In this document: in pieces, positions 1 through 28,698 of the stretch | Layout: each line of letters begins with the position of its first letter | How positions within the stretch are numbered: the stretch's first letter is position 1 | Origin: an uncultured Candidatus Peribacteria bacterium | GTDB taxonomy: Bacteria; Patescibacteriota; Gracilibacteria; UBA4473 | Assembly: GCA_964567875.1 (NCBI GenBank) | Contig: CAZMOH010000001.1 | Span: 1 to 32,054, forward strand | Direction: 5' to 3' | DNA length: 32,054 nucleotides | Translations under genes and position numbers: made by a program | Notes under the pieces: generated by a model | Seen by the model: the letters and a program-made list of their open reading frames with translations, nothing else | Told to the model about the DNA's origin: nothing | Database searches by the model: none

Positions 1-31
1 AAATGTATTACTAAAAATCCCGCGAAAATTT

Positions 32-2424: not shown

Positions 2425-2442
2425 AAAATTTCGCGGGATTTT
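2425..2442 (-). repeat. Exact 18-mer motif copy (AAAATTTCGCGGGATTTT on the + strand)
   Basis: Lies in the divergent spacer between the GT4 gene and rplP. Confidence 0.95.
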
Positions 2443-2556: not shown

Positions 2557-2973
2557 ATGCTTCAACCAAAGAAAACGAAACACAGAAAGCAGTTTAGATT
2601 GCGTTCGCAATCAAAAGGGATTTCTACCCGAGGGGCGACTATTGCCTTTGGGAAAATTGGAATTAAGACGGTTCAAGCTGGAGAAATTACGGCGCGACAA
2701 ATAGAAGCAGCTCGTCGAGTTATTTCAAGATCTTCTAAGCGTGGAGGAAAAGTTTGGATTAGAATTTTTCCTGATAAGATTTTGACTTCCAAAGGGGCAG
2801 AAGTTCCAATGGGATCAGGAAAAGGGTCGCCTGATAAATGGGTTTGCCAAGTTAAACCAGGACGAATTTTGTTTGAAATGGCTGGGGCAGATATGGCAAC
2901 TATGAAAGAAGCATTACGGTTGGCAATTTATAAATTACCGGTGAAATGCAAAATTATTACTACTGAAATTTAA
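2557..2973 (+). CDS. rplP: 50S ribosomal protein L16
   Basis: MLQPKKTKHRKQFR...WIRIFPDK...GKGSPDKWVCQVKPGRILFE matches the canonical L16 pattern. Confidence 0.97.
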   Translation: MLQPKKTKHRKQFRLRSQSKGISTRGATIAFGKIGIKTVQAGEITARQIEAARRVISRSSKRGGKVWIRIFPDKILTSKGAEVPMGSGKGSPDKWVCQVKPGRILFEMAGADMATMKEALRLAIYKLPVKCKIITTEI

Positions 2974-2974
2974 G

Positions 2975-3181
2975 ATGAAAGTTCAAGAATTACGTCAAAT
3001 GACAGAAAAAAAACTTAATCAAAAATTAAGGGAGATGCGTCGTGAATTAAATAGTGCTAAATTTCGCGTAAAAACTGGGCAAAATCAAAACACAGCTCAG
3101 ATCAAGAAATTAAGAAAAACAATTGCTAGGATTTTGACAATTCTTCAGGAAATGAAGGATAAATTAACTAAAACTGCATAA
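2975..3181 (+). CDS. rpmC: 50S ribosomal protein L29
   Basis: 68 aa beginning MKVQELRQMTEKKLNQKLREMRRELNSAKFR. It sits in the conserved position between L16 and S17. Confidence 0.9.
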   Translation: MKVQELRQMTEKKLNQKLREMRRELNSAKFRVKTGQNQNTAQIKKLRKTIARILTILQEMKDKLTKTA

Positions 3182-3183
3182 TA

Positions 3184-3417
3184 ATGATTACAAAAAAAGG
3201 AACGGTTATTAAGGTTATTGATGATAAAACTGCGAAAGTAGAGGTACACAGTTATCGTCAACATAAGATTTATAAAAAACGGTACAGAATTACAAAAAAT
3301 TATTTAATAGATACTCCAAATCGTTTAAATGAAGGAGATCAGGTTGAAATTGAACAATGTCGTCCTGTTTCTAAACGAAAACATTGGAGATTAGCAGTAA
3401 AACCAGCGAAAAAATGA
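3184..3417 (+). CDS. rpsQ: 30S ribosomal protein S17
   Basis: 77 aa with [16 protein letters not shown]...[14 protein letters not shown]...[20 protein letters not shown]. It ends in TGA, overlapping the rplN ATG as ATGA. Confidence 0.93.
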
Positions 3418-3782
3418 TTCAACATATGTCTTGGTTACAGGTAGCTGATAATACTGGTGCAAAGAAAGTTATGTGCATCAAGGTATTAGGAGGATCCAAA
3501 CGACGATATGCTCGCGTGGGAGATGTTATTGTTTGTACAGTAAAAGAGGCTGCACCTAAAGGTGTTGTTAAGAAAAAGTCTGTGCAAAAAGCAGTTGTTG
3601 TCAGAACAACTAAAGATATTAAACGACCGGATGGTTCTATTCTCCGTTTTGATGAAAATGCAGTTATTATTATTAACAATGAAGGACAACCAAAAGGAAC
3701 TCGTGTTTTTGGGCCGGTTGCCCGTGAACTTCGAGCCAAAGGTTATCAGAAAATTATATCACTAGCTCCTGAAGTATTATAA
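3414..3782 (+). CDS. rplN: 50S ribosomal protein L14
   Basis: [18 protein letters not shown]... is the canonical L14 N-terminus. The tracked ORF start at 3384 overlaps S17, and ATG 3414 (ATGA coupling) gives 122 aa. Confidence 0.95.
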
Positions 3783-3783
3783 A

Positions 3784-4128
3784 ATGAAATTTAGAATTAA
3801 TGACGATGTCGTAATAATCGCGGGAAAAGATCGCGGAAAAACTGGGAAAATTACAAAAGTTTTGCCTAAAAAAGGAAAAGTGATTGTAGAAGGAGTTAAT
3901 AAAGCTATTAAGCATGTTAAAGGTAGAAACGGAGAAGCAGGAGAACGAGTAGAGTTTTTCGCTCCAATTGATGTTTCTAATGTAGCGATTGCTGATCCCA
4001 AAGATGGAAAACCTTCTAAGATTGGGTATCGAGTTGAAGGTAAGACAAAAGTTAGGTTTGCGCGAAAATCTGGAACTGTTTTACCAACAGCTTCCAAAAA
4101 AACTGCTAAAAAAGTTGTTAAAAAATAA
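3784..4128 (+). CDS. rplX: 50S ribosomal protein L24
   Basis: Contains the KOW motif (DDVVIIAGKDRGKTGKITKV) and sits in the conserved position after L14. Confidence 0.93.
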   Translation: MKFRINDDVVIIAGKDRGKTGKITKVLPKKGKVIVEGVNKAIKHVKGRNGEAGERVEFFAPIDVSNVAIADPKDGKPSKIGYRVEGKTKVRFARKSGTVLPTASKKTAKKVVKK

Positions 4129-4134
4129 TTAAAA

Positions 4135-4701
4135 ATGAAATCCGAATTATACGAAAAATATCAGAAAGAAATTCGCGGGAAACTGCAAAAGGACTTGGGT
4201 ATTAAAAATCCAATGGAGGTTCCAAAGATTGAAAAAATTGTTATCAATGCTGGAATTGGGTCTTATTTACAGAAATTGGGGTCAAAAGATACTTCATATG
4301 TTGAAGAATGTTTGTCAAATATTGCTGGACAAAAAGCATTGGTAAATAAGGCTAAACTTTCTATCTCTAATTTTAAATTGCGAGAGGGAATGCCGGTGGG
4401 AGTTTCTGTTACTTTGCGAAAAGAACAAGCTTATAATTTTCTTTATAAATTAATTAATCTTGTTTACCCACGGGTACGAGATTTTCGCGGAGTTGGTGGA
4501 AATCCCTTTGATAAAAATGGAAATTGTTCAGTTGGATTTAAAGACCATACAGTTTTTATGGAAGTGGAAAAACCAGAAAATTCAAATAAAATTTTTGGAT
4601 TACAGGTTGTAATAGTTACTTCCACGAAAAATAAAGAACATGCGAAAGCTCTTTTAACGGAATTTGGATTTCCTTTTAAGAAAAAATTAACTAATAAATA
4701 A
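4135..4701 (+). CDS. rplE: 50S ribosomal protein L5
   Basis: 188 aa with an L5-type pattern (PKIEKIVINAGIG... NFKLREGMPVGVSVTLR) and conserved gene order. Confidence 0.95.
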   Translation: MKSELYEKYQKEIRGKLQKDLGIKNPMEVPKIEKIVINAGIGSYLQKLGSKDTSYVEECLSNIAGQKALVNKAKLSISNFKLREGMPVGVSVTLRKEQAYNFLYKLINLVYPRVRDFRGVGGNPFDKNGNCSVGFKDHTVFMEVEKPENSNKIFGLQVVIVTSTKNKEHAKALLTEFGFPFKKKLTNK

Positions 4702-4704
4702 AAA

Positions 4705-4929
4705 ATGGCTCGAAAAGCAATTGTCGTCAAATCACGAAAATTTATGGAACGATATCTTCTCGCGAAAAAAGAAGGTCGTAAAATAAAAAAATCAACTCAA
4801 GCTTATAATCGCTGTAGTTTATGCGGTCGTCCGCACGGTTATATGCGTGACTTCGGAATTTGTCGAGTTTGCTTTCGTGAATTAGCTGAAAAAGCTCAAA
4901 TTCCTGGTGTAAAAAAATCTTCTTGGTAA
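4705..4929 (+). CDS. rpsN: 30S ribosomal protein S14 (zinc-binding type Z-like, 74 aa)
   Basis: Contains the zinc ribbon [25 protein letters not shown] (CxxC...CxxC), ends ...KKSSW, and lies between L5 and S8. Confidence 0.9.
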
Positions 4930-4941
4930 AAACTATAAAAA

Positions 4942-5322
4942 ATGATTGATCCTATTGCTGATTTCTTGACTCGTATTCGAAACGCTCAAATGGCTAAACA
5001 TACTGAGCTAGTCGTTCCTTATTCAAAAACAAAGCAAGCTATTGCTGAGGTAATGAGAAAAAATAAATTTTTAACTAGCGTTGAAAAAAGGAAAGACGAG
5101 AAAGGGAAGTTTGATGTTTTAGTTGTGGGATTACCAGCAAAAAAATTAAATCTAAAACGAGTTTCTAAATGTGGACAAAGAATCTACACTTCAGCAGAAA
5201 ACATTCGTAAAGTGACTAATGGTTATGGTATCGCTATTATTTCTACTTCCAAAGGGATGATGACTGGGTACGAAGCTCGTGCTTTAAACATTGGTGGAGA
5301 ATATATTTGTGAAGTTTCTTAA
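4942..5322 (+). CDS. rpsH: 30S ribosomal protein S8
   Basis: Begins MIDPIADFLTRIRNAQMAKH and ends ...GGEYICEVS, the canonical S8 pattern. Confidence 0.95.
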   Translation: MIDPIADFLTRIRNAQMAKHTELVVPYSKTKQAIAEVMRKNKFLTSVEKRKDEKGKFDVLVVGLPAKKLNLKRVSKCGQRIYTSAENIRKVTNGYGIAIISTSKGMMTGYEARALNIGGEYICEVS

Positions 5323-5414
5323 AAAAACCGCGAAATTTTAGTTTAAAAAATAAAAAATATAATAAACAGTAATTTATTTTTTGATTTTAATTAAAGTTTT
5401 CTTAAAAATATTTT

Positions 5415-6242: not shown

Positions 6243-6258
6243 AATCCCGCGAAATTTT
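6241..6258 (+). repeat. Exact 18-mer motif copy (AAAATCCCGCGAAATTTT on the + strand)
   Basis: Overlaps the TAA stop (6240-6242) of the FdtA-like gene and lies 3' of tRNA-His. Confidence 0.95.
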
Positions 6259-6454: not shown

Positions 6455-7711
6455 ATGTTAAGTTTTTTTTTCAATTTTCTATTTCTAATAACACAAAAAA
6501 TAGAGCTCACTCAAAATCCTGTTTTGAATGAGGCAGAGTTCCATAACAGTGCCCCTTTAAGAAAAATTAAAATCCCGCGAAATTTTAAAAAAAAGATAAC
6601 TTTTTCTTCATCAAAACAAATCTGTCAGTCAAGATTTTTTACTAAATCTGATCAAAAAACATCACAAATAGATAACTTAGACTTTCCTTTAAATAAATAT
6701 TTTCGCCAAACTCTATCTACACCAACTCAAGTCAAAGGAATTTATTTAACTGGATATACTTTTTCTAATAAAAAGAAACGGACAGATTTAATAAATCTTA
6801 TAAAAAATACAGAATTAAACACGATTGTTATTGATTTTCAAGATTCAGATGGAGGGCTTATGTTTCCTGTTCAAGATCCAGAATTACAAAAAATTCCTCT
6901 TTCTACAGTTTATTTATCACGAAAGAAATTCCGCGAAATTTTAAATAAAATACACAAAGAGGGGATTTATACGATTGTTAGGATTACAACTTTTCAAGAT
7001 TCTGGAGCAGTAAAAGCTTTTCCTGATTTAGTTTTAAAAAACAAAAGAGGTGATGATTGGAAAAATTATAAGAATCTTTCTTGGTTAGATATGACAAATA
7101 AAAAATCTTGGGAAATTCCCGCGAAAAAAGCCTTAGAAGCAGTTAAAATGGGATTTGATGAAGTTCAATTTGATTATGTTCGTTTTCCCACAGATGGGAA
7201 TTTAAAATCAATTTCATATTATGAATTAGGAGATAAAAAGAAGTACGAGGTTTTAATAGATTTTTTCTCCTTTTTACAAAAACAAAAAAAGAAACTAGGG
7301 GTTCCTATTTCTGTAGATTTATTTGGTATAACTTACGCAAATTACAGTAATATTTCGCGGGATTTAATGATTGGTCAACGTTTAATTGATGCAGTTAAAT
7401 ATTTTGATTATGTATCTCCAATGCTTTATCCGTCACATTATGTTTCAGGTTATTTAGGCTATAAAAATCCCGCGAATTTTCCATATCAAGTTATTTCAAA
7501 AGCTTTATATGATGGACATAATATGATTAGGAGACACACAAAACAGCCCATTACTAAGACTAGACCATGGCTTCAATCTTTTAATTTAGGAGCAATTTAT
7601 GATTATGGGAAAATTCGTGCTGAAATTCGAGCAGTAGAAGAAAGCGGATCTTCTGGATGGATTTTGTGGAATGCTCGTAATGTCTACGGGATTGGGTTGA
7701 ATAAAAATTAA
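6455..7711 (+). CDS. Putative glycoside-hydrolase-like TIM-barrel protein (DUF4015-like), N-terminal signal/TM
   Basis: Contains VKGIYLTGYT...LNTIVIDFQDSDGG...IYTIVRITTFQD...GFDEVQFDYVRFPTDG. The start was moved to ATG 6455 (MLSFFFNFLFLI) because 6377-6454 overlaps the tRNA-His promoter. Confidence 0.7.
   Translation: MLSFFFNFLFLITQKIELTQNPVLNEAEFHNSAPLRKIKIPRNFKKKITFSSSKQICQSRFFTKSDQKTSQIDNLDFPLNKYFRQTLSTPTQVKGIYLTGYTFSNKKKRTDLINLIKNTELNTIVIDFQDSDGGLMFPVQDPELQKIPLSTVYLSRKKFREILNKIHKEGIYTIVRITTFQDSGAVKAFPDLVLKNKRGDDWKNYKNLSWLDMTNKKSWEIPAKKALEAVKMGFDEVQFDYVRFPTDGNLKSISYYELGDKKKYEVLIDFFSFLQKQKKKLGVPISVDLFGITYANYSNISRDLMIGQRLIDAVKYFDYVSPMLYPSHYVSGYLGYKNPANFPYQVISKALYDGHNMIRRHTKQPITKTRPWLQSFNLGAIYDYGKIRAEIRAVEESGSSGWILWNARNVYGIGLNKN
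6569..6586 (+). repeat. Exact 18-mer motif copy
   Basis: Inside the DUF4015-like CDS, where it encodes KIPRNF. Confidence 0.95.
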
Positions 7712-7727
7712 AATTTCGCGGGATTTT
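7710..7727 (-). repeat. Exact 18-mer motif copy
   Basis: Fused to the TAA stop at 7709-7711. Confidence 0.95.
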
Positions 7728-7781: not shown

Positions 7782-9281
7782 ATGAAAAATGTACTAATTT
7801 CGGTTTCAGATAAAACAGGTGTAACAAAATTTGCAAAAAACCTCGAAGAACTTGGTTATAACATTCTCTCAACAGGTGGAACTTTTCGTGTTTTAAAAGA
7901 AGCGGGAATCAAAAACCTACAAGAAGTTGCAGATTTTACAAAATTTCCAGAAGGATTAGAAGGACGAATTAAAACACTTACTCCGCAAATTTTCGCGGGA
8001 ATTCTTTATCTACGAGGAAACGAAACTCACGAGAAGTTTATGCGTGAAAATAATTTAGAGGATATTGATATGGTGGTAGTTAATTTGTATCCATTTAAAA
8101 AGAATTATTTAGATAACTCCAAAGATTTCCGCGAAAAGGTAGAACAAATTGATATTGGAGGACCTTCAATGATTCGGGCAGCAGCGAAGAATTTTGAATT
8201 TTGTGCGCCAGTTGTTGATCCAGATGATTATGCCAAAATTATTTCCGAACTTAAAAATGAAGGGGATATTACTTTAAAAACACGAAAAATTTTAGCGGCC
8301 AAAGTTTTTGAAATGACCGCACATTATGATTTATTAATCGCGAAATTTTGGGTGGAAAACGCTGAAAAAAGACCGCTTCGTTATGGGGAAAATCCTCACC
8401 AATCAGCAGTTATTTTAGAAGACCCCTTTGTCGAAGGAGTAAACTTAGTTAAAGCGAAAGTTCTAAACGGGAAACCACTTTCTTATAACAATTTTGGTGA
8501 CTCAACTGGAGCTCTGGAATTAGCAATTAGTTTTGAACAACCTTTTGCTTGCATCATAAAACACGCTTCACCATGTTGTGCGGCAATTGGAGAAACCATT
8601 GATGAAGCTTTTTCGCGGGCTTATGAAATGGGAGATTCTTTATCCGCTTTTGGGGGAATTATTGCCTTAAATCGTAAGGTAAATAAAGCGACTGCTGAGA
8701 AAATTATCTCATTTTTCAACGAAGTGGTAATGGCGCCAGGATATGATGATGAAGCTCTAGAAATTTTGAAAACCAAGAAAAATTTGCGAGTTTTAGAAGT
8801 GCCAAATATGGACAAAGTAGAACCAGATTTTGTTTATAAACGAGTTCGGGGAGGAACTTTAATGCAAGAAATAGATTTGAAACAAATTTCCCGCGAAAAT
8901 TTACAAACAGTTACCAAGGAAGCTCCTTCAGAAAAGGAAATTATAGACTTACTGACAGCTTGGAAAATTGTAAAAATGGTTAAATCAAATGCAATAGCCA
9001 TTGTTAAAGACGGTGCACTTATTGGGGCTAACGGTGGGCAAACTTCGCGAGTTGACGCGATGAAAAATGCGATTGCTCAAGCTGGTGAAAAAGCAATCGG
9101 GGCAGTTTTAGCTTCAGATGCTTTTTTCCCTTTTCCAGACGCGGTGGAAGCAGCGGGAGAAGCTAAAATTTCAGCCATTATTCAGCCAGGTGGTTCTCGG
9201 AATGACGATATTGTTTTTGCTAAAGCTGATGAATTAGGAATTAAAATGGTTTTAACCGGGACACGAAGTTTTCTGCATTAA
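7782..9281 (+). CDS. purH: Bifunctional AICAR transformylase / IMP cyclohydrolase
   Basis: 499 aa, from MKNVLISVSDKTGV...LSTGGT to the ...RSFLH end, the canonical PurH pattern. Confidence 0.95.
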   Translation: MKNVLISVSDKTGVTKFAKNLEELGYNILSTGGTFRVLKEAGIKNLQEVADFTKFPEGLEGRIKTLTPQIFAGILYLRGNETHEKFMRENNLEDIDMVVVNLYPFKKNYLDNSKDFREKVEQIDIGGPSMIRAAAKNFEFCAPVVDPDDYAKIISELKNEGDITLKTRKILAAKVFEMTAHYDLLIAKFWVENAEKRPLRYGENPHQSAVILEDPFVEGVNLVKAKVLNGKPLSYNNFGDSTGALELAISFEQPFACIIKHASPCCAAIGETIDEAFSRAYEMGDSLSAFGGIIALNRKVNKATAEKIISFFNEVVMAPGYDDEALEILKTKKNLRVLEVPNMDKVEPDFVYKRVRGGTLMQEIDLKQISRENLQTVTKEAPSEKEIIDLLTAWKIVKMVKSNAIAIVKDGALIGANGGQTSRVDAMKNAIAQAGEKAIGAVLASDAFFPFPDAVEAAGEAKISAIIQPGGSRNDDIVFAKADELGIKMVLTGTRSFLH

Positions 9282-9305
9282 AAAATTCCCGCGAAATTTT
9301 AAAAA

Positions 9306-9737
9306 ATGAAACAAGATAAAATAGAGACTACTTTTCTGAAAACTTTTCGTGGATTTAAAAAAATAATTCCGATGATTTTGATTATTTTTCTAATAATCAG
9401 TTTTATCAAAGTTTTAATTCCTACCAGTTTTTATCAAAAAATTTTCACAGGTAATTTTTTCGCGGATTTATTTATCGGAAGTACTTTGGGGAGTGTTTTA
9501 GCTGGGAATCCAATTACTGGATATATTTTGGGAAACGAATTTTTAAAAAACGGAGTTGATTTAGTGGCAGTTACTTCTTTTTTGGTTTGTTGGACAACTG
9601 TTGGATTAATTCAGTATCCTGTAGAAAGCATTAGTTTGGGTAAAAATTTCGCGAAATTTCGTAATATTTCAGCTTTCTTTATTTCAATGCTAGTTGCTAT
9701 TACAACGGTTTTTATTTTTGATCTTATTATCAAATGA
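9306..9737 (+). CDS. Small polytopic membrane protein (possible permease subunit)
   Basis: 143 aa with about 4 hydrophobic helices. It is coupled to the next gene by an ATGA overlap. Confidence 0.5.
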   Translation: MKQDKIETTFLKTFRGFKKIIPMILIIFLIISFIKVLIPTSFYQKIFTGNFFADLFIGSTLGSVLAGNPITGYILGNEFLKNGVDLVAVTSFLVCWTTVGLIQYPVESISLGKNFAKFRNISAFFISMLVAITTVFIFDLIIK

Positions 9738-10243
9738 AAAAGATTTTTAAAAACAAAATCGCAATTATATTTTTCATTTGTTTTGTAATTTTGGCTGCAG
9801 TTTGGTGGCAAAATCCCGCGAAATTTTGGCAAATTGGACAAGTTTTCAAAAACTTAATTCTACAGTTAATTCCAGTTTTAGGATTAGTATTTTTAATAAT
9901 GTTTCTAATTAATTATTTTTTTGATAAAAATTTATTGGAAAAAAATTTATTAAAACAGAGTCCTTTAAAAAAATGGGTAGTTTCGATTCTCGCAGGAATT
10001 CTATCTGTTGGACCGGTTTATGTTTGGTATCCATTAATGCAGGATTTACAAGAAAAAAATGTTGAGAACCGTTATATTGCTTGTTTCCTTTATAATCGTG
10101 GCATAAAACTTCACTGGGTAACGATTCTGATTTTTTATTTTGGATTAATTTATGTTTTAATTTTGTTTATAGTGATGACTTTGTTTTCTATTCCACAGGG
10201 GATAATTACTGAGAAATTAATTAATAAATTTTCTTCAAAATGA
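9734..10243 (+). CDS. Small polytopic membrane protein (possible permease subunit)
   Basis: 169 aa and hydrophobic, with ATGA overlaps on both sides. Confidence 0.5.
   Translation: MKKIFKNKIAIIFFICFVILAAVWWQNPAKFWQIGQVFKNLILQLIPVLGLVFLIMFLINYFFDKNLLEKNLLKQSPLKKWVVSILAGILSVGPVYVWYPLMQDLQEKNVENRYIACFLYNRGIKLHWVTILIFYFGLIYVLILFIVMTLFSIPQGIITEKLINKFSSK
9810..9827 (+). repeat. Exact 18-mer motif copy
   Basis: Inside a membrane-protein CDS, where it encodes NPAKF. Confidence 0.95.
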
Positions 10244-11211
10244 ATATCTTTTATCCCTTCGAATATCTCGCGAAATTTATAACTTTTTCTATTTTTTCTC
10301 TTGAAAAAGGAACACATTTAGCGGAAGCTGTAAATTTTTTCTTTTACGATTCTCTGAAAATTTTGTTTTTAATTTTGATTATTACTCATTTAATGAGTTT
10401 GTTGCGGTATTATTTACCAATTGAAAAAATTCGTGGGTTTTTAACTAGTCGGAAATTTTACGGATTAGATTATTTTCTTGCCACAATTTTTGGGGCAATT
10501 ACGCCTTTTTGTTCTTGTTCTTCAATTCCACTTTTTATAGGATTCATCGAAGCCCGTATTCCATTGGGAGTTACTTTTGCTTTTTTGATAACTTCACCTC
10601 TAATTAATGAAGTAGCAATTGCTTTGTTTATTGGAATGTTTGGATTAAAAATCACCCTAGCCTATATTTTCGCGGGAATTTTTATTGGAATGCTGGGGGG
10701 ATTTATTATCGGACAATTAAATTTAGAAAAATATGTCGCCGATTTTGTCTGGAAAGCACATATTAAAAACCATGAAACAAAATCCCGCGAAATTTTGTTT
10801 GCTCAAGTTTGGCAAGAAATTTCCGCTGAAGCTTTTGGAATTATGCGAAAAATTACTGGTTATGTTTTAGTTGGAGTGGCTTTAGGTGGACTTATTCATG
10901 GTTTTGTTCCGCAGGGATTTTTTGAAAAATATCTACAAAAAGCTAGTTGGTGGGGAGTTCCCTTAGCCGTAATTTTAGCTATTCCTTTGTATTCTAACGC
11001 AAGTGGTGTAATTCCAATTATTCAATCACTAGTTACAAAAGGAGTTCCTTTGGGGACAGCTTTAGCTCTGATGATGGGGATTGTCGGACTTTCTTTGCCG
11101 GAAGCTTTTATTCTCAAAAAAGTTCTTAAATGGCAACTTCTTGCGATATTTTTCAGTATCGTAGCGGTTGGAATTATTCTAATTGGTTATATTTTTAATG
11201 CTTTTCTCTAA
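10240..11211 (+). CDS. Predicted permease (ArsP/YraQ-like, PF03773-type)
   Basis: 323 aa, polytopic, with the FCSCSSIPLF motif characteristic of this permease family. Confidence 0.7.
   Translation: MNIFYPFEYLAKFITFSIFSLEKGTHLAEAVNFFFYDSLKILFLILIITHLMSLLRYYLPIEKIRGFLTSRKFYGLDYFLATIFGAITPFCSCSSIPLFIGFIEARIPLGVTFAFLITSPLINEVAIALFIGMFGLKITLAYIFAGIFIGMLGGFIIGQLNLEKYVADFVWKAHIKNHETKSREILFAQVWQEISAEAFGIMRKITGYVLVGVALGGLIHGFVPQGFFEKYLQKASWWGVPLAVILAIPLYSNASGVIPIIQSLVTKGVPLGTALALMMGIVGLSLPEAFILKKVLKWQLLAIFFSIVAVGIILIGYIFNAFL
10779..10796 (+). repeat. Exact 18-mer motif copy
   Basis: Inside the permease CDS, where it encodes KSREI. Confidence 0.95.
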
Positions 11212-11227
11212 AATTTCGCGGGATTTT
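11210..11227 (-). repeat. Exact 18-mer motif copy
   Basis: Fills the 14-bp convergent spacer. It overlaps the permease TAA (11209-11211) and the mscS stop (11226-11228). Confidence 0.95.
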
Positions 11228-12047
11228 ATTTTTTCAAATGTACATCCATCTGCGGATAAGGAATAGAAATTTGAGCTTTATCAAATTCTTGTTTTACTTT
11301 TTCAATAAAATCAAACTTGATATCCCAATAATCATCAGTATTGCACCACGGTCGAACGAAAAAATTAACAGAACTATCAGCTAGTTCTCCTACCACTACT
11401 AAAGGTTTAGGATCTTTTAAAATCCGTTTGTCTTCTTTAATAATTTTTTCTAAAATCCCGCGAACTTTTACCAAATCATCGTCGTAACTTACCCCAAATA
11501 CCATATCAATTCGTCTAGTTTTTTTGGCAGTGTAGTTTGTAATTTCTTTATTAGATAAATCTCCGTTAGGAATAATTATTGTTTTATTATCAATTGTTAC
11601 CAAAGTTGTATTGAAAATAGTTATTTTTTCTACAGTTCCGGCGTGAGAACTGGTTGCAATATAATCTCCAATTTTAAATGGTTCAAAAAGTAAAATTAAA
11701 ACTCCACCAGCGAAATTAGCCAAACTCCCTTGTAAAGAAAGTCCAATAGCTAAACCAGCTGCTCCCAAAAGAGCGATAAATGAAGTCATTGGTACACCTA
11801 AAATTCCCGCGAAAATAATAAAAACGAGAACTTTTAAAGAAATTGAAATCAAGCTTCCTAAAAAAGTCCGAACTTCTAAACTTATTTTTTGTTTAACCAT
11901 TATTTTGTGCAATCCTTTGATTAAAATTCTAACTACTTTAAATCCAATCCATAGCACTAAAAAAGCAAGAATTATTCGCGGAATATAACTTATAGCGCCT
12001 TCGATGAATAATTCCTTATATTTTGCGAAATCTAAATCAATTTTCAT
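11226..12047 (-). CDS. mscS: Small-conductance mechanosensitive channel (MscS family)
   Basis: 273 aa with GAAGLAIGLSLQGSLANFAGGVLILLFEPFKIGDYI, the pore-helix/beta-domain signature. Confidence 0.9.
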   Translation of the reverse strand: MKIDLDFAKYKELFIEGAISYIPRIILAFLVLWIGFKVVRILIKGLHKIMVKQKISLEVRTFLGSLISISLKVLVFIIFAGILGVPMTSFIALLGAAGLAIGLSLQGSLANFAGGVLILLFEPFKIGDYIATSSHAGTVEKITIFNTTLVTIDNKTIIIPNGDLSNKEITNYTAKKTRRIDMVFGVSYDDDLVKVRGILEKIIKEDKRILKDPKPLVVVGELADSSVNFFVRPWCNTDDYWDIKFDFIEKVKQEFDKAQISIPYPQMDVHLKK

Positions 12048-12162
12048 TTTATTTTTGTAAAATTTCGCGGGAATTATAAATGATTAATTATTAAAAGTGA
12101 AAATTTTAAAGCTAGAACAAATTCTTGTTGACTTTTTTAGTAAATTGCATTAACCATTAAAT

Positions 12163-12669: not shown

Positions 12670-12703
12670 AATTTCGCGGGATTTAATTCTTCATTAAAAA
12701 AAA

Positions 12704-12861: not shown

Positions 12862-12924
12862 CTTATAAAAAAATCCCGCGAAAATTTGACTTTTCAAAAA
12901 AAATAAAGAAAATTCAAGCGTCTA

Positions 12925-12957
12925 GATGGTTAACTTGAGAAGTTAATCGTCTTTTTT
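12925..12957 (+). terminator. Terminator/attenuator-like hairpin in the nusA leader
   Basis: GATGGTTAACTT-gag-AAGTTAATCGTC forms a 12-bp stem with G-U pairs and a perfect 7-bp core. It is followed by TTTTTT (12952-12957). Confidence 0.5.
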
Positions 12958-12961
12958 CCGC

Positions 12962-12979
12962 AAAATTTCGCGGGATTTT
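12962..12979 (-). repeat. Exact 18-mer motif copy
   Basis: Ends 15 nt upstream of the nusA ATG. Confidence 0.95.
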
Positions 12980-12994: not shown

Positions 12995-14293
12995 ATGCAA
13001 AGTCAATTACAAGCCGCTATCAACCAAATCTGTGCCGAAAAAAATATCGACAAAGATGTAGTTATTAATGCCATTGAAGAAGGAATTGCTTTGGCTTATC
13101 GAAAAGATTTTGGTCACAAGGATCAAAAAATAAAAGTTATTTTAGGTGATGATATAAGTGAATTGAAAATTTTTGAAGAACGAGAAGTGGTAAAAAAAGT
13201 GGAGAATTTTGAAACAGAAATCTCTTTAAAAGATGCACAAAAAATAAATCCAGTAATAGAAATTGGACAAAAAATTTATATTCCTTTGAAGTTAGAAGAA
13301 AACTTCGGGAGAATTGCGGCTCAGACAGCACGACATGTTATGACTCAAAAGATTCAAGAAGCAGAGAGAGCAATGCTTTTTGAGAAATTTAAAGATCGAG
13401 AAGGAGAACTTTTGACAGCTCGAGTTCAGAAAGTTGATAGGGATTCAGCTTTGATTGAGATTGAGGGTATTACTACGATTTTGCCCAAAAGACAACAAAT
13501 TATGGGAGAAAAGTACTTTACAGGTCAAAGAATTAAAGTTCTTTTGGAATCAGTTGAACAAACTAGTCGTGGTCCACAATTAAAAATTACTAGAACAAGT
13601 AATAAATTTATTGAAGCACTTTTTGAAGCAGAAATTCCAGAAATTCGCGAAGGATTAGTTTATATAGCGAAAATGGCTCGTGAACATGGTGTTCGTTGTA
13701 AAATTGCAGTTGCTTCTGACGATAATTCTATTGATCCAGTTGGGGCATTTGTTGGGCAAAGAGGTAGTCGTATTAATGCTGTTATGGAAGAAGTTGGAGA
13801 TGAAAGGTTAGATATAATTCAATATTACGAAGATCCAAAGAAGCTACTTAAAGCGGCTCTTTCTCCCGCGAAAATTGCAAAGGTTGAATTTTACAAAGGG
13901 GATAGAGGAGAGGAGCGTGTAAAAATATTTGTTCGAGAAGAAGAACGAGCAATTTCTATTGGAAGGAAAGGACAAAATGTTAGATTAGCAGGACAACTTA
14001 TTGGAATGCAAATTGATGTTATAACTTTTGATGGACCAGATGAAGAAGACGAATCTCTAAAAGCAGAAGTAGTTTCTAAGCAAAAGAAAGCTAAAAAAGA
14101 GGTTTCTGAGAAACTTACAATTGATAACTTGGAAGGAGTTGATAAGGAAGTTATTGCAACCTTAACTGATATTGGATTATCCCAAATTAAACAGTTCGAA
14201 GGATTACAAGCTGAAGAGCTTTCTGAAATTGGAATTTCTTTGGCTGATGCAAAATCAGTTATTAAAGCTGTTAAGAAGTTTTTAAATAGTTAG
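12995..14293 (+). CDS. nusA: Transcription termination/antitermination factor NusA
   Basis: 432 aa with an NusA N-terminal domain, S1, two KH domains (GQRGSRINAV..., IGRKGQNVRLA) and a C-terminal HhH-like tail. Confidence 0.95.
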   Translation: MQSQLQAAINQICAEKNIDKDVVINAIEEGIALAYRKDFGHKDQKIKVILGDDISELKIFEEREVVKKVENFETEISLKDAQKINPVIEIGQKIYIPLKLEENFGRIAAQTARHVMTQKIQEAERAMLFEKFKDREGELLTARVQKVDRDSALIEIEGITTILPKRQQIMGEKYFTGQRIKVLLESVEQTSRGPQLKITRTSNKFIEALFEAEIPEIREGLVYIAKMAREHGVRCKIAVASDDNSIDPVGAFVGQRGSRINAVMEEVGDERLDIIQYYEDPKKLLKAALSPAKIAKVEFYKGDRGEERVKIFVREEERAISIGRKGQNVRLAGQLIGMQIDVITFDGPDEEDESLKAEVVSKQKKAKKEVSEKLTIDNLEGVDKEVIATLTDIGLSQIKQFEGLQAEELSEIGISLADAKSVIKAVKKFLNS

Positions 14294-14298
14294 TTAAG

Positions 14299-14316
14299 AA
14301 AATTTCGCGGGATTTT
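14299..14316 (-). repeat. Exact 18-mer motif copy
   Basis: Lies 5 nt after the nusA stop. Confidence 0.95.
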
Positions 14317-14378: not shown

Positions 14379-14855
14379 ATGAAAATTTTAGGAATAGATC
14401 CCGGATATGGATTATGTGGATTTGCTGTTTTAGAGAAATCCCGCGAAATTTCGGAATTTAATCTGCTTACTTTTGGTGTTATTTCAACCCCCCCCGAAAA
14501 GAATTTTGCAGAAAGATTATTAGAGATTGCTAATGATTTTCAAAATCTTTTAAATAAATATAGGCCCCAAATTGTTTCAATTGAAGATTTATTTTTTGCC
14601 AAAAATGTAACAACTGGTTTACAGGTAGCACAAGTTCGCGGAATTTTAATTTATCTAGCCCAAAAATTCGGTTGTCAAATATTAGAACCAAAACCAGTAG
14701 AGGTAAAATCCTCTTTTACAGGAAACGGAAGAGCAACTAAATTAGAAATGAAGAAAATGGCGAAATTAATGTTTCACCTAGAAAATAATCCTCAAATTGA
14801 TGATGCAGCTGATGCAATTGCCATTGCTTTATGGGCAATTAGGCAGAAATATTAA
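14379..14855 (+). CDS. ruvC: Holliday junction resolvase RuvC
   Basis: Begins MKILGIDPGYGLCGFAVLE and contains ...DAADAIAIAL, carrying the catalytic acidic residues of RuvC. Confidence 0.93.
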   Translation: MKILGIDPGYGLCGFAVLEKSREISEFNLLTFGVISTPPEKNFAERLLEIANDFQNLLNKYRPQIVSIEDLFFAKNVTTGLQVAQVRGILIYLAQKFGCQILEPKPVEVKSSFTGNGRATKLEMKKMAKLMFHLENNPQIDDAADAIAIALWAIRQKY

Positions 14856-14870
14856 ATTTCGCAGGATTTT

Positions 14871-15938
14871 TTATTGAACTCCGTTTGCTTTCAAAATTGA
14901 CTTTAAATCCTCTTCGCTTTTAGCATACTCAAAAGCTACTTCTTTAGTTATAATTTTATTAATAACTAAGCCAGCTAAAGATTGTTCTAATTGCACCATT
15001 TGTCCTGAATCGTCAGTTTGAAGAGCTGTTGGAATCTGAAAAATCTTATTTGTTCGAATATAGTTGGCAATCGCATAGTTATTAACTAAAACTTCATAAG
15101 CCAAAGTCCGACCACCAGCAATTGTTGGCACCAAAGTTTGCGAAATAATGATTGATAGTGTGCTAGCAAGTTGTGAGCGAACTTGTCCCTGCTGTTCTGA
15201 AGGGAAAATATCAATAATTCGCGAAATTGTTTCCGGACCACTATTTGTATGTAAAGTTGAAAAAACCAAATGTCCAGTTTCAGCCATTGTTAAAGCCGCA
15301 GAGATTGTTTCATAATCACGCATTTCTCCAACTAACAAAATATCGGGATCTTCTCGTAAGGCAGCTTTAATCCCTGCTGTAAAATCTACAACATCTCGAC
15401 CAATTTCTCTCTGTTGAATCATAGAATTATTAGATGGGAGTAAAAATTCCACTGGATCTTCAATTGTGATAATATGATCCGCCCTTGTTCGTGAAATTTC
15501 TTGTAAAACTGAGGCTAAAGTTGTTGTTTTTCCCTGCCCAGTTGGCCCAACAATTAAAACAAATCCTTTGCGTTTTGTAGTTAGATTTTTAATAACAAAA
15601 TCAGGAAATCCTAAAGTATGAATATCAGGAATTTTCGCGGGAATTATTCGTAGAGAAACACTTAATCCTTTTTCTTGAAAAAAAGCATTTCCACGCATTC
15701 TTACGCCTTGTGGTCCTTGTACTGCAAAATCAACCTGTCTTCCAATTTGCAAAGTCTTTTTTTGTTTATCATTTAGAATAGGTAATAAAAACTGTTGAAT
15801 AAGTTTTGCATCAACAATTCTTTCTCCTTGTTTAACCATTTTCCCAGCGACACGAAAATGAATTTGTAATCCTGGTGATAAATGAATATCGGAAGCATTT
15901 TGCTGAATAGCGGCTAAAACTAGTTTTTCTGAATCCAT
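14871..15938 (-). CDS. pilT: Type IV pilus retraction ATPase PilT
   Basis: 355 aa with ASDIHL..., Walker A GPTGQGKTTT, and Asp/His boxes (DPDILLVGEMRD, GHLVFSTLHT). Confidence 0.9.
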   Translation of the reverse strand: MDSEKLVLAAIQQNASDIHLSPGLQIHFRVAGKMVKQGERIVDAKLIQQFLLPILNDKQKKTLQIGRQVDFAVQGPQGVRMRGNAFFQEKGLSVSLRIIPAKIPDIHTLGFPDFVIKNLTTKRKGFVLIVGPTGQGKTTTLASVLQEISRTRADHIITIEDPVEFLLPSNNSMIQQREIGRDVVDFTAGIKAALREDPDILLVGEMRDYETISAALTMAETGHLVFSTLHTNSGPETISRIIDIFPSEQQGQVRSQLASTLSIIISQTLVPTIAGGRTLAYEVLVNNYAIANYIRTNKIFQIPTALQTDDSGQMVQLEQSLAGLVINKIITKEVAFEYAKSEEDLKSILKANGVQ

Positions 15939-15985: not shown

Positions 15986-16003
15986 AAAATCCCGCGAAAT
16001 TTT
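15986..16003 (+). repeat. Exact 18-mer motif copy
   Basis: Overlaps the TAA stop (16002-16004, minus strand) of the M23-SLH gene and lies upstream of pilT. Confidence 0.95.
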
Positions 16004-18200
16004 AATGAATTTGTGATAATTTATAAAGAATTCTAGCGGCTTCAATGCGAGAAATTACTTTATTTGGGTGGACAAGTCCTTGTGCATCTGGGGAAATTAG
16101 CCCATTACTTCTAGCAAAAGAAAAGTATGGTTCATACCAGGAATCAGCTGTCACATCTCTATAAGGTGAGAATTTGGTATCTAAGGGAACAATCCCTTTA
16201 GCTAATAATGACATTTTTAAAAATTCAGCTTTAGTAATTCCGTTAGCTGGTTTAAAGTATTTTCCACTATAACCAGCAACTAATCCTTTGTCATAAGCAG
16301 TTGAAACATATTTTGCAAACCAATCCTGACGATTTACATCTTGAAATATTTTTTTCGCGGGATTTAATTTAATTTTATTAGCTGTTAAAATTGCTTTTAC
16401 AGCTTCCGCTCGATTTAGAAACTTGCTAGGTCGAAATTCTCCTTGTGCATTAGCCGTAATAATTTTGTTTTTATCAACAAATTCTGCGAAAATTCGCTCT
16501 TTCCCAATAGATGAAATATCTACAAATGATTTGGCTAGAAGCGTTGGAGATTTTATTTTTTTCTTAGCACTTTCCGCAACAATCTTAAATGGTTTTTTGG
16601 AGTTAGTTGTTAAGGTGATTTCTACGCCTTTATTTTTAAATAAAGATTTCTTGATAGTATTTGGCACAATTTTTACAAAATCTCGTGAAGTTGTGCGTAA
16701 AGTAACTCCCGAATCAGTCAATGCCGAATCTTTCGCAAATAAAATGATTTTTTTAGGTTTTCCAGGAACAAAAGTTCTATCTAGTTCAAACCAAAAATCA
16801 TCTGTTCCGTATTTTTGAAAATTTTCGCGGGATTTTTTACCGGGAACTATTTTCGGATTTGGTTTAGAAACGGATATATTTTTTGTTACAGTTGAAGCTG
16901 TTTTTGAAACTTTTTTAGCACTAGAATGTAAAGTAGTTGATTTATAATTTGGTCGACGAGAAGCAATTCTTATATGATTGTTTTGGAGTGGAATATTTTC
17001 CTTAAACCGAAATTTGCGACGCGAATTTTTTCGACGAACAATGCGACGAGCATGATTTACGGGATTATAAGATTTTTTTTGAGTAAAAGTTTTTTTTGAT
17101 GAATTAGAACTATGAGAAGCCCGCGAAATTTCTTGTTCAGATTGTCCGGCTGTTGCCACTAAACGCGGTTTTGTTGTTGGCACATAGCCAATTGTTCTAG
17201 CAATTAAATTCATAGGGTGAACAGTATATTTTTTCGCGAGATTTTGATTTAATCCGTGTTTTACTGCTTCAAAAAATGAAGATAATCCATGATTAACAAC
17301 TTCTTTCCAGGTAAATGGCCAATACGGATGAAAAGGAGCATTAGCTGTATCAATTTGAAAATGTAAATGAGGCGCAGTAGCCATTCCTGACATTCCAGAA
17401 AGACCAATAACTTGTCCTTTTTGAACTTGGTCTCCTTCTTTTACTTTAATTTGAGAAAGATGGGCATAAGCAGAATAAAGAGTTGTTTTTTTCGCGGGAT
17501 TTTTAGGATCAGGAACATCTTTGTGCATAACTACAATATGTTTCCCAAAACCAGTTGATTGGCTTTTAGCTTTAATAACAACTCCTCGGGAAATGGCATG
17601 AACTGGTGTTCCGATTGGAACTTTTATGTCTAGTCCAGTATGAGACCCAGTTCCTTCAGTTCCGTCTAATTTGTAATCTCCCAAAACAGGAACCGGATAA
17701 GTTAAATAAGCATTTCGTTCTCGTTCATTATTTGCTTGCCAAACTTTTCCTTTCTGGAAATCTACGACACTATATCTCGGTAAAGGAATAAATTTATTCG
17801 CTGGAATTTGAGAATAAGTTGCTTTTCTTTCCGCTGTTGTCAAAGCTGTCCATTTAGGAACTTTGGTAATCGGATAAACAGCTCCATCAAAAGGATCGGT
17901 ATTATATTTCATCTGAATCATTGAAGTTTGAAAAAACCGTAAATAATTCTGAATCCCTCCGTTAAAAATCAAAAAAGTTGCGATAATAATCAAAAGCAAA
18001 ATTGCTAGTGGATTTTCGCGAAAAAATCTTTCCCGCGAAAAATAATCACGAGGACTTATTTGTTTTTTCACAAAATTTACAGCCTCTGAACTCAATAGTT
18101 CATTTTGATATTTTGATTTATGAAAATATTTGTCGTAGAAATAAGCCAGTGATACGGCCGAGACAATTCCTGAAACGATAGCGATAATTTTTTTCTTCAT
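16002..18200 (-). CDS. Membrane-anchored M23 (LytM) peptidase with three C-terminal SLH domains
   Basis: An N-terminal TM segment is followed by HTGLDI ... PHLHFQI (M23 zinc motifs) and a basic low-complexity linker. Three SLH-like repeats follow (FVDISS..., FQDVNRQDWFAKYVSTAYDKGLVAGY..., YRDVTADSWYEPYFSFARSNGLIS...). Confidence 0.85.
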   Translation of the reverse strand: MKKKIIAIVSGIVSAVSLAYFYDKYFHKSKYQNELLSSEAVNFVKKQISPRDYFSRERFFRENPLAILLLIIIATFLIFNGGIQNYLRFFQTSMIQMKYNTDPFDGAVYPITKVPKWTALTTAERKATYSQIPANKFIPLPRYSVVDFQKGKVWQANNERERNAYLTYPVPVLGDYKLDGTEGTGSHTGLDIKVPIGTPVHAISRGVVIKAKSQSTGFGKHIVVMHKDVPDPKNPAKKTTLYSAYAHLSQIKVKEGDQVQKGQVIGLSGMSGMATAPHLHFQIDTANAPFHPYWPFTWKEVVNHGLSSFFEAVKHGLNQNLAKKYTVHPMNLIARTIGYVPTTKPRLVATAGQSEQEISRASHSSNSSKKTFTQKKSYNPVNHARRIVRRKNSRRKFRFKENIPLQNNHIRIASRRPNYKSTTLHSSAKKVSKTASTVTKNISVSKPNPKIVPGKKSRENFQKYGTDDFWFELDRTFVPGKPKKIILFAKDSALTDSGVTLRTTSRDFVKIVPNTIKKSLFKNKGVEITLTTNSKKPFKIVAESAKKKIKSPTLLAKSFVDISSIGKERIFAEFVDKNKIITANAQGEFRPSKFLNRAEAVKAILTANKIKLNPAKKIFQDVNRQDWFAKYVSTAYDKGLVAGYSGKYFKPANGITKAEFLKMSLLAKGIVPLDTKFSPYRDVTADSWYEPYFSFARSNGLISPDAQGLVHPNKVISRIEAARILYKLSQIH

Positions 18201-18253: not shown

Positions 18254-18271
18254 AAAATCCCGCGAAATTTT
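18254..18271 (+). repeat. Exact 18-mer motif copy
   Basis: Lies in the divergent spacer between the M23-SLH gene and trmB. Confidence 0.95.
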
Positions 18272-18914: not shown

Positions 18915-18930
18915 AATTTCGCGGGATTTT
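18913..18930 (-). repeat. Exact 18-mer motif copy
   Basis: Fused to the trmB TAA stop (18912-18914). Confidence 0.95.
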
Positions 18931-21614: not shown

Positions 21615-21631
21615 AAATTTCGCGGGATTTT
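21614..21631 (-). repeat. Exact 18-mer motif copy
   Basis: Fused to the mutS TAA stop (21612-21614). Confidence 0.95.
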
Positions 21632-24498: not shown

Positions 24499-24516
24499 AA
24501 AATTTCGCGGGATTTT
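24499..24516 (-). repeat. Exact 18-mer motif copy
   Basis: Lies between the divergent rpmB and pth promoters. Confidence 0.95.
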
Positions 24517-25651: not shown

Positions 25652-25667
25652 AATTTCGCGGGATTTT
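25650..25667 (-). repeat. Exact 18-mer motif copy
   Basis: Fills the convergent spacer, fused to the TAA at 25649-25651 and touching the GGCT-like stop. Confidence 0.95.
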
Positions 25668-28631: not shown

Positions 28632-28698
28632 CGTCTCGATTTTGCTAAAAAACAATAATTTGTCAATTTTTTGCAAATTTCGCGGGATTTTTTTGTTT

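Follow-up and report, generated by a model that had tools for sequence, protein, structure and literature searches.

A stretch of 32,054 bases (contig CAZMOH010000001.1; hereafter the window, meaning the whole stretch that was analyzed) from an uncultured bacterium of Candidatus Gracilibacteria is studded with copies of a 10-base word, TTTCGCGGGA. We found this word to be hyper-abundant, specific to a narrow clade, and indifferent to strand, reading frame, and coding status. The pressure on it is strong enough to fix amino acid changes in the encoded proteins, mostly at tolerant positions and occasionally at an otherwise invariant one, as in the change of Gly72 to Ala in PurH. The word may be a self-DNA tag of the same kind as the uptake signal sequences (USS) of Pasteurellaceae, the DNA uptake sequences (DUS) of Neisseriaceae, and cyanobacterial HIP1 (for highly iterated palindrome 1), spread via preferential uptake and/or recombination in natural transformation; we favor this explanation tentatively, giving it slightly less than an even chance. 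The data consist of the window and of fragmentary relatives, with gene calls based on open reading frames (ORFs). L numbers denote contigs of relatives retrieved for comparison, and P0001 to P0003 are MutS sequences on contigs of the clade.

The word in intergenic and coding DNA

There are 56 exact copies of TTTCGCGGGA in the window, 30 on the plus strand and 26 on the minus strand, spaced at about 550 bases (1.75 per kb). At one mismatch or fewer, the number rises to 103, against 2.61 ± 1.57 expected and a maximum of 7 in 100 dinucleotide-preserving shuffles, and the 8-mer sub-words occur 74 to 80 times, whereas an order-2 model predicts about 1 to 3. An 18-mer, AAAW-TTTCGCGGGA-TTTT, has the word as its core, and its AT-rich flanks are informative; the information spans these 18 bp, with none outside, and a T at position -5 was rejected as part of the motif because that position carries no information. 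According to the one-mismatch spectrum in the window, core positions 2 to 7 (TTCGCG) are nearly invariant and positions 1, 8, and 9 are soft, with T>A at position 1 (n = 12) and G>A at positions 8 (n = 9) and 9 (n = 14). The window has 160 CGCG tetramers, and 115 of them are found in motif-like contexts. Symmetric versions of the word are rare or missing (TCCCGCGGGA, 0 occurrences; TTTCGCGAAA, 5, versus 56 for TTTCGCGGGA); the word is strictly asymmetric and is not a palindromic octamer like HIP1. Four to five of the 56 copies have CCGCAAA on their 5' side, forming a small CCGC/GCGG stem that a terminator scan flags (e.g., 7982-7999 and 12956-12975).

Beyond the window, a metagenome scan for the 18-mer yielded 73 motif-rich contigs (149 kb), three of them 99 to 100% identical to the window. 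The density of TTTCGCGGGA in these contigs is 2.0 per kb, a figure inflated, like the flank consensus, by the choice of each contig for an exact 18-mer; frame and orientation statistics are not inflated by this selection. In IMG/VR, scanning with a 16-mer turned up 36 single hits and no viral contig rich in the word, which is uninformative either way.

Exact copies fall both within genes (35 of 56, 62%) and between them (21 of 56, 37%). The latter lie in the noncoding 8.9% of the window, at 7.4 per kb compared with 1.2 per kb in genes (binomial p = 5e-9). Within genes, all six frames are used: sense frames 0, 1, and 2 hold 2, 5, and 6 exact copies and the corresponding antisense frames 10, 4, and 8, or 9, 11, and 11 and 20, 7, and 18, respectively, when one mismatch is allowed. 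The counts in 174 kb of other clade contigs are 16, 23, and 44 (sense) and 55, 13, and 47 (antisense); of 337 copies there, 139 lie between genes or at the edges of contigs. Frame use is uneven, being biased to SRE[KI], NPAK, and [IN]FAG. One orientation yields the peptides IPRN, NPAK, and SRE[IKN], and the other yields ISRD/FSRE, [IN]FAG, and FRGI. These are the classes that the original prediction, made from the letters of the window, had assigned to each orientation, and the peptides it listed in MutS (11) and FemAB (5) are all present, each encoded by a motif or near-motif copy. The host genes are genuine by Pfam and NCBIfam (YchF, PurH, NusA, RuvC, a PilT/PilU-family ATPase, TrmB, MutS, Pth, FemAB, AspS, and others), MutS carrying all five of its Pfam domains; the same word is indeed translated in every frame, on both strands, inside real genes. 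Since six frames give six different peptides, a peptide repeat is ruled out, and the frame tabulation that had been proposed as a check against a protein-level repeat shows copies that are not confined to one frame. The further claim that pressure acts on the nucleotide word rather than on a peptide is supported by the use of six frames and both strands, by the 37% of exact copies that are intergenic, by the copies in PurH, which arose by substitution without a change in length and carry derived residues, and by the derived residues in MutS.

The PurH gene (7782-9281, +; 499 amino acids) contains four motif-like copies, and its product can be matched over its full length to solved structures of PurH (E = 3e-109 to PDB 4ehi). 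The focal copy is exact and lies at 7991-8000 (+), with its 18-mer spanning 7987-8004; it is in sense frame 2 and encodes IFAG. As had been read, bases 7989-8006 are ATT TTC GCG GGA ATT CTT, or IFAGIL within RIKTLTPQIFAGIL. The original prediction gave the family segment as KTLHPKIHGGIL and proposed that HGG had been rewritten to FAG to accommodate the word. This segment is correct for PurH outside the Gracilibacteria class, where PDB chains read KTLHPKIHGGIL, KTLHPRVHAGLL, and KTLHPAVHAGIL. Yet all 27 full-length motif-free Gracilibacteria orthologues read KTLTP[QE][VI]FGG[ILV]L; Phe and Thr are therefore older than the motif, the Thr of KTLTP moreover lying outside the motif-encoded residues. 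Thus, the proposed His-to-Phe rewriting fails, while the Gly-to-Ala part stands: Ala72 occurs only in the motif-bearing clade (the window, L001, and L028), Gly72 is invariant in the 27 motif-free orthologues, and none of these, having FGG, carries FAG. Ala at position 72 is normal in other PurH lineages (HAG). Both histidines of the conserved KTLHP.[IV]H[GA]G are replaced (KTLTP[QE][VI]FGG) in all retrieved Gracilibacteria PurH sequences (window 7965-8006; L001-L033), a replacement that is independent of the motif.

Comparison with motif-free orthologues shows that the PurH copies were made in place by substitution, with no indels. At the focal site, TTT GGN GGN became TTC GCG GGA in register, which needs three to four substitutions (TTT to TTC, GGN to GCG, and in some cases GGG to GGA). 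A one-step origin from the near-motif TTTGGCGGGA of L004 was ruled out, this near-motif being offset by one base. The focal copy is kept in L001, has one mismatch in L028, and is absent from the 27 motif-free orthologues. The other three are likewise kept in L001 and are absent in L002, L004, and L010: a one-mismatch copy at 8127-8136 (-) encoding F-R-E-K where motif-free orthologues have F-E-[DE/Q]-K, a one-mismatch copy at 8611-8620 (+) encoding F-S-R-A in place of F-[ED]-[KR]-A, and an exact copy at 8889-8898 (-) in antisense frame 0, encoding SREN in a variable segment. The derived residues are thus FRE from FE[DE], FSR from F[ED][KR], and SREN from a variable stretch. Residues unseen in the 27 motif-free orthologues occupy 4 of 16 motif codons but 20 of the 483 elsewhere (Fisher p = 0.005), and the window residue differs from the majority at 56% of motif codons, compared with 25% of other positions.

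A similar picture emerges from MutS, which we aligned with 86 homologues (52 to 64% identity) and in which ten motif-like copies account for 40 codons. Like the three further copies in PurH, these ten carry derived residues, mostly at poorly conserved positions. Motif codons fall in weakly conserved columns (mean 0.41 versus 0.69; p = 9e-10) and depart from the majority residue at 75% of positions, as opposed to 30% (p = 2e-8). Unique residues are found at 4 of 40 motif codons versus 12 of 815 others (p = 0.005). One of them is the Phe encoded by the exact copy at 19330-19339, where 87% of the 86 homologues have Ile. The same preference for poorly conserved positions was described for USS and DUS by Findlay and Redfield (PMC2817400).

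Copies of the word are retained beyond what sequence divergence predicts. Of 13 exact copies in the window, ten are unchanged at orthologous sites in genomes 70 to 83% identical, versus 12.7% of control 10-mers from the same alignments (p = 2e-7), so that TTTCGCGGGA shows the conservation of sites above background, within and between ORFs, that characterizes HIP1. There is also some turnover between relatives; the copy at 12063-12072, for example, is absent from L001. PurH-based retrieval places the window in Candidatus Gracilibacteria, within the candidate phyla radiation (CPR), with L001 (92% PurH identity) and L028/L035 (92 to 93%) as its nearest relatives, followed by L002 (80%). The word is present only in a narrow clade comprising the window, L001, L028/L035, and the contigs of MutS sequences P0001 to P0003 (83 to 99% identity), and about 30 other Gracilibacteria loci lack it, among them the nearest MutS outgroup, L196 (64% identity). 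A conspecific contig, L195 (ENA ERZ27262647; 99.4% identical), differs from the window at 70 positions over 12 kb, with 2 differences in 390 motif columns versus 68 in 11,721, a comparison with no power to detect selection. One of its differences, G>A at a CpG (position 16827), breaks an exact copy, giving TTTCACGGGA, and site 18767 shifts from two mismatches to one.

Gene ends, spacing, and the remaining copies

Nearly all gaps longer than 14 nt hold a copy, and this applies to tandem, convergent, and divergent neighbors alike. The 10-mer begins 2 nt past a stop codon in eight gaps, a spike explained by the TAA codon, whose AA also supplies the first two A residues of the flank. Copies so placed follow the TAA stop of an FdtA-like gene (6245-6254, -), a TAA stop upstream of PurH (7714-7723, +; kept in L001), another TAA stop (12672-12681, +), the stop of the minus-strand M23/SLH gene (15990-15999, -), and the TAA stop of TrmB (18917-18926, +). 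Two convergent gaps of 14 to 15 nt, 11212-11225 and 25652-25666, contain nothing but the 18-mer, which shares its outer AA and TT with both TAA stops; their exact copies are at 11214-11223 (+; TAA-AA-motif-TT-TTA, 14 nt, kept in L001) and 25654-25663 (+; 15 nt). The convergent gaps 14856-14870 and 1373-1398 are filled likewise, with one-mismatch copies. Further copies lie in the 24-nt gap 3' of PurH (9287-9296, -), 9 nt past the NusA stop (14303-14312, +), and 3 nt past the MutS stop (21618-21627, +). Divergent intergenic regions hold those at 2429-2438 (+), 12063-12072 (+), 18258-18267 (-), 24503-24512 (+), 28678-28687 (+), and 28863-28872 (-). The other intergenic copies are at 18-27 (-), 12874-12883 (-; after tRNA-Val), 12966-12975 (+; upstream of NusA, with two mismatches in L194), 29357-29366 (-), and 30420-30429 (-; upstream of AspS). 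Among 203 gene ends in clade contigs, 80 (39%) have a copy within 30 nt, at exactly 2 nt in 37 cases. These copies are divided equally between the same orientation as the gene and the opposite one (40 versus 40), which rules out an orientation-specific gene-end signal.

An RNA hairpin or intrinsic terminator was likewise ruled out. Single copies do not fold better than shuffles (20-mer, -1 kcal/mol; z = -1.0), and terminator-like sites are not enriched (20 versus 13.1 ± 4.2 expected). Only rare head-to-head pairs in sister contigs, AAAAATCCCGCGAAA-TTTCGCGGGATTTTT, qualify as terminator-like stem-loops: these few form perfect hairpins of -19 to -21 kcal/mol with A and T tracts on their flanks, like bidirectional terminators (L102, 10-29; L110, 159-178; L137, 247-269; L180, 904-923; L194, 2461-2481), and none occurs in the window. 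USS and DUS pairs are known to form terminator hairpins. Other Gracilibacteria have lineage-specific palindromes of their own, AACCCGGGTT, CATCCCGGGATG, and GAGACCGGTCTC, together with AGTTCGAACT and AGTCCGGACT in L020 and L019. Such palindromes mostly come in pairs, 10 to 35 bp apart, which fold at gene ends into hairpins of -21 to -32 kcal/mol, for instance in L003 (9767-9796, 11509-11551, 13616-13641, 17272-17314, 18628-18658, and 21152-21184), L024 (1516-1550, 1603-1646, and 8619-8662), and L025 (579-611, 885-917, and 1226-1258); one hairpin in L003 stands directly 3' of PurH and is followed by TTTTT. These pairs look like terminators or hairpins of the repetitive extragenic palindromic (REP) type built from one repeated word. 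A clade-wide "HIP-like" reading of AACCCGGGTT, CATCCCGGGATG, and GAGACCGGTCTC was dropped, paired gene-end hairpins being a different architecture. In L009 (17.4 kb) and L021 (21.5 kb), AAATTT is over-represented (84 versus 6.5 and 30 versus 3.9 expected, respectively) without a wider consensus, and L009 is also rich in CGATCG, TCGCGA, and CGCGCG.

Close spacing is avoided. No two exact copies are separated by less than 80 bp, where 7.2 such gaps are expected, and with near copies included there are 2, compared with 23 expected. Orientation tends to alternate: only 16 of 55 neighboring pairs in the window share an orientation (p = 0.003), and the other contigs have 96 same and 168 opposite neighbors (p = 1e-5). 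In terms of pair correlation, same-orientation pairs are depleted to 0.2 to 0.7 of expectation up to about 500 bp, whereas the depletion of opposite-orientation pairs is limited to distances below 100 bp, and from 100 to 500 bp these pairs exceed expectation 1.2- to 1.7-fold. Gene strand is not the explanation, since alternation is also seen inside single genes such as MutS. It may reflect either an orientation-specific reading of the word or the purging of close direct 18-mer repeats, which are prone to deletion. GC skew is positive across nearly the whole window, indicating a single replichore; together with the balanced strand counts (30 and 26), this excludes a polar motif of the kind represented by Chi or the FtsK-orienting polar sequences (KOPS).

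The intragenic exact copies outside PurH can be grouped by frame. Antisense frame 0 gives SREI in an ArsP-type permease gene (10783-10792, -; kept in L001), RuvC (14439-14448, -), MutS (21402-21411, -), a SpoU methylase gene (23718-23727, +), and FemAB (26786-26795, +); SREN in the M23/SLH gene (16823-16832, +; the copy lost by one single-nucleotide polymorphism in L195) and a phosphoribosyltransferase gene (22125-22134, -); and SREK in an EamA transporter gene (23071-23080, +) and an AstE-like gene (30048-30057, -). Antisense frame 1 gives IPRN in a GT4 glycosyltransferase gene (2003-2012, +), a DUF4015 gene (6573-6582, -), and codons 3 to 6 of FemAB (27094-27103, +), and FPRK in MutS (19627-19636, -). 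Antisense frame 2 encodes IPAK in the DUF4015 gene (7117-7126, -), the PilT-family ATPase gene (15633-15642, +), and Pth (24810-24819, -); NPAK in a hypothetical gene (9814-9823, -; kept in L035) and twice in the M23/SLH gene (16353-16362, + and 17490-17499, +); SPAK in NusA (13864-13873, -; kept in L194); and FPAK in TrmB (18458-18467, -). As for the sense frames, frame 0 gives FRGI in MutS (20028-20037, +) and FRGN in a YerC/TrpR-like gene (29143-29152, +). Frame 1 gives ISRD in the DUF4015 gene (7353-7362, +), the AstE-like gene (29521-29530, +), and AspS (31370-31379, +), and FSRE in the M23/SLH gene (18031-18040, -) and in MutS (19330-19339, +; kept in L120). Frame 2 gives IFAG in the ArsP-type permease gene (10668-10677, +; kept in L001), MscS (11805-11814, -; kept in L001), and FemAB (26706-26715, -); NFAG in TrmB (18371-18380, +); and FFAG in a FecR-like gene (28473-28482, -).

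The window uses the standard code. Genetic code 25, in which TGA is read as Gly, was ruled out: 33 of 38 ORFs called with TGA as a sense codon have no in-frame TGA, multiple TGAs occur only in spurious ORFs, ATGA start/stop overlaps are present (e.g., 9734-9737 and 10240-10243), and the ribosomal-protein operon L16-L29-S17-L14-L24-L5-S14-S8 (2557-5322) is intact only with TGA as a stop, that is, under code 11. Stop codons in the clade number 155 TAA, 31 TAG, and 17 TGA. The lineage is labeled Gracilibacteria or Peribacteria in public records, and its TGA is a stop, unlike in the BD1-5/SR1 Gracilibacteria, which use code 25. The 2.8-kb ribosomal-protein operon has no exact copy, compared with about 3 expected, a trend only; it coincides with the longest stretch lacking one (a 3.8-kb gap), and a two-mismatch variant of the word stands right after the S8 stop at the operon end (5323-5345). 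The window also encodes a motor of pilus-dependent DNA uptake, a PilT/PilU-family type IVa pilus retraction ATPase (14871-15938, -; Pfam T2SSE; TIGR01420, 399 bits versus a cutoff of 319). No DNA methyltransferase or Vsr gene was found among the window genes, the methyltransferases there being TrmB and SpoU, which act on RNA, and no RecBCD or AddAB gene was seen in the window.

Known repeated words and competing explanations

Among known repeated words, USS offers the closest comparison. Both USS (core AAGTGCGGT in Haemophilus influenzae) and the word described here have a short nonpalindromic core with informative AT-rich flanks, and core positions graded in importance; both reach about one or more copies per kb, equally on both strands; and both have about two-thirds of their copies in ORFs, in all frames but with a biased choice among them, prefer poorly conserved genes and residues, and inflate the encoded tri- and tetrapeptides (PMC2817400, PMC3458573). 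For H. influenzae, 65% of USS copies are in ORFs (PMC2817400), close to the 62% found here. The differences are that the sequences are unrelated, that the host belongs to the Gracilibacteria of the CPR, that the density is about twice that of USS, and that, unlike USS, the word is enriched about sixfold in intergenic DNA, abuts stop codons, and alternates in orientation. Its asymmetric core set in palindromic flanks, a density about twofold that of H. influenzae USS, gaps holding one copy, and alternating orientation are its distinctive features. The USS analogy fits every sequence-level feature tested; biased uptake itself would follow by analogy. By all sequence-level criteria, the word can be placed in the functional class of uptake-sequence-like genomic words.

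Other systems share fewer traits. DUS (GCCGTCTGAA and its dialects, recognized by the ComP receptor) is, like the word, hyper-abundant (as a 10- to 12-mer), clade-specific, and strong at gene ends, its inverted pairs form terminator-like hairpins as do such pairs of the word in sister contigs, and it depends on a type IV pilus, of which the window encodes a PilT-family ATPase. In contrast to DUS, the window copies are single and form no hairpins, the sequence is unrelated, and no ComP-like pilin was identified in the window, where pilins were not searched for; in Neisseria meningitidis, only 34.5% of DUS copies are intragenic (PMC2817400) versus 62% here. Cyanobacterial HIP1 (GCGATCGC) and the alternate HIPs resemble the word in their hyper-abundance, their spread by substitution, their conservation within and between ORFs, and their lack of a peptide or RNA role, the excess of HIP1 being 15- to 300-fold (PMC5861425, PMC4390886, bioRxiv 10.1101/2024.09.10.611283, 10.64898/2026.06.24.733823). 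HIP1 long lacked an explanation; when methylated, it was recently shown to increase natural transformation by as much as 100-fold or more (bioRxiv 10.1101/2024.09.10.611283), and HIP1 correlates with DNA-uptake genes (10.64898/2026.06.24.733823). Yet HIP1 is a perfect palindrome recognized by orphan methyltransferases, whereas the word is asymmetric and longer (18 bp of information) and has no known cognate methyltransferase. REP elements, bacterial interspersed mosaic elements, and other intergenic palindromic repeats also place many copies at gene ends, but the word in the window forms no hairpin, lies mainly within genes, and came about through substitutions, not insertions. Chi and KOPS are short, asymmetric, G-rich words whose orientation, like that of the word, apparently matters to spacing; unlike them, the word shows no strand bias on an apparent single replichore. 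The specific USS and DUS cores (AAGTGCGGT/ACAAGCGGT and the GCCGTCTGAA dialects) are not matched, the core here being TTTCGCGGGA and the host Candidatus Gracilibacteria. Overall, the word belongs to none of the specific families: sequence separates it from USS, host from DUS, symmetry from HIP1, the hairpin from REP, and polarity from Chi. In the literature searched, we found no report of such a motif in Gracilibacteria or the CPR; among the matches listed for the word itself, there were only primers and constructs.

If the word is a self-DNA tag, it would probably serve natural transformation dependent on a type IV pilus. In the CPR, type IV pili occur widely, and ComEC has been reported from 86% of the genomes (PMC6744442). 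A type IV pilus and ComEC machinery would prefer word-bearing DNA at uptake and/or at a later recombination step, and mutations creating or improving a copy would then be over-transmitted through recombination among conspecifics. Purifying selection on proteins would limit the surviving copies, with the result that intergenic DNA would be saturated, tolerable frames used, and conserved columns and the ribosomal-protein operon avoided. Several observations weigh against a self-DNA tag. A simple uptake-drive model does not predict the alternation of orientation or the depletion of same-orientation pairs to about 500 bp, and we know of no such alternation in USS or DUS. The roughly sixfold intergenic enrichment, which we take to be stronger than that reported for USS and DUS, and the 39% of gene ends with a copy would equally suit a gene-boundary or nucleoid protein site.

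A chromosomal-protein site of this sort is the main rival, although we consider it unlikely: the word would be bound by an abundant sequence-specific DNA-binding protein (a nucleoid organizer, or a gene-boundary or roadblock factor) and kept by ordinary selection, not transmission bias. The density contrast of 7.4 versus 1.2 per kb agrees with it, as do the copies in almost all gaps longer than 14 nt, the two convergent gaps reduced to the 18-mer, and the 80 of 203 gene ends with a copy within 30 nt, 37 of them at exactly 2 nt. Conservation at orthologous sites and the palindromic flanks would be expected too, the exclusion below 80 bp could be steric, and with canonical intrinsic terminators unenriched another end signal could be needed; a role in nucleoid structure has been argued for HIP1 (PMC5861425). 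However, 62% of the copies are intragenic, in all frames and at an amino acid cost that includes an invariant Gly, where selection should act against a boundary signal. Copies at gene ends favor neither orientation, divergent promoter gaps also carry copies, the near absence of TCCCGCGGGA and TTTCGCGAAA speaks against a simple homodimer site, and no candidate protein was identified. Biased repair tied to a methyltransferase, converting near-cognate sites to cognate ones in the manner of very-short-patch repair and leaving the word as a functionless by-product, seems quite unlikely. The PurH copies did arise by point substitution in place, the core contains the CGCG that is so concentrated in motif-like contexts, and nearly all one-mismatch variants are either transitions at two G positions or T>A at position 1, with almost no variation at the CpG positions, as if these had been corrected; for HIP1, such a model has a precedent (PMC4390886). 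Against this stand the 18 bp of information, longer, to our knowledge, than the sites recognized by known methyltransferases or Vsr enzymes, and the lack of a DNA methyltransferase or Vsr gene in the window. A mutational process alone predicts neither the exclusion below 80 bp, nor alternating orientation, nor gaps trimmed to one copy. Furthermore, the retention of 10 of 13 copies at 70 to 83% identity is the type of evidence that Xu et al. took to favor selection over repair (PMC5861425).

Two further explanations have still less to recommend them. Very little probability remains for an orientation-dependent, Chi-type recombination signal that acts on a RecBCD- or AddAB-like enzyme entering at a DNA end, with each orientation required in its own right. 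For it speak the lineage-specific core, which is G-rich and asymmetric, the separate spacing of copies in the same orientation and of those in the opposite one, and the RuvC and MutS genes of the window, and a Chi-like role has been proposed for HIP1 (bioRxiv 10.1101/2024.09.10.611283). The window, however, appears to be one replichore by GC skew and yet has 30 plus and 26 minus copies, while known Chi and KOPS motifs show a strong co-orientation with replication; a RecBCD or AddAB gene, moreover, was not seen in the window. Finally, it is hardly credible that the copies are a miniature mobile element, similar to REP or to miniature inverted-repeat transposable elements, or a repeat at the protein level. 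High copy number and the many copies at gene ends are what such an explanation has in its favor, but elements of this class are extragenic, form hairpins, and spread by insertion, whereas orthologue alignments here show substitutions only, 62% of the copies lie inside genes, in frame with conserved proteins, the 20-mer folds no better than its shuffles at -1 kcal/mol, and six frames encode six different peptides.

Implications for Gracilibacteria and the CPR

CPR bacteria, or Patescibacteria, are thought to use pili and ComEC mainly for nucleotide scavenging, and Saccharibacteria have recently been made genetically tractable via natural competence. Against this background, the window might reveal the first uptake-sequence system in the CPR, an 18-bp tag peculiar to a narrow Gracilibacteria lineage and read in an orientation-specific manner by its type IV pilus and ComEC machinery. 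We regard this fuller proposal as doubtful. If it is true, ultra-small and probably host-dependent bacteria would preferentially take up and recombine DNA of their own kind instead of scavenging indiscriminately, and drive would have placed the tag at about 2,000 sites in each genome (1.75 per kb extrapolated to about 1.2 Mb), including the cores of conserved enzymes. The palindromic gene-end words of sister lineages would then be related tags, and tag identity would act as a fast-evolving barrier to gene flow.

Whatever the mechanism, alternating orientation and gaps trimmed to one copy are quantitative features that it must explain. The word provides an independent, asymmetric case for the debate over whether USS, DUS, and HIP1 are driven or selected, and a clean natural example of pressure at the nucleotide level overriding an otherwise invariant residue of a core enzyme. 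A practical use is conceivable too: donor DNA to which the 18-mer has been added might be able to transform the lineage. Should the word prove to be a self-DNA tag, it would imply selective exchange of DNA among conspecifics in the reduced genomes of the CPR.

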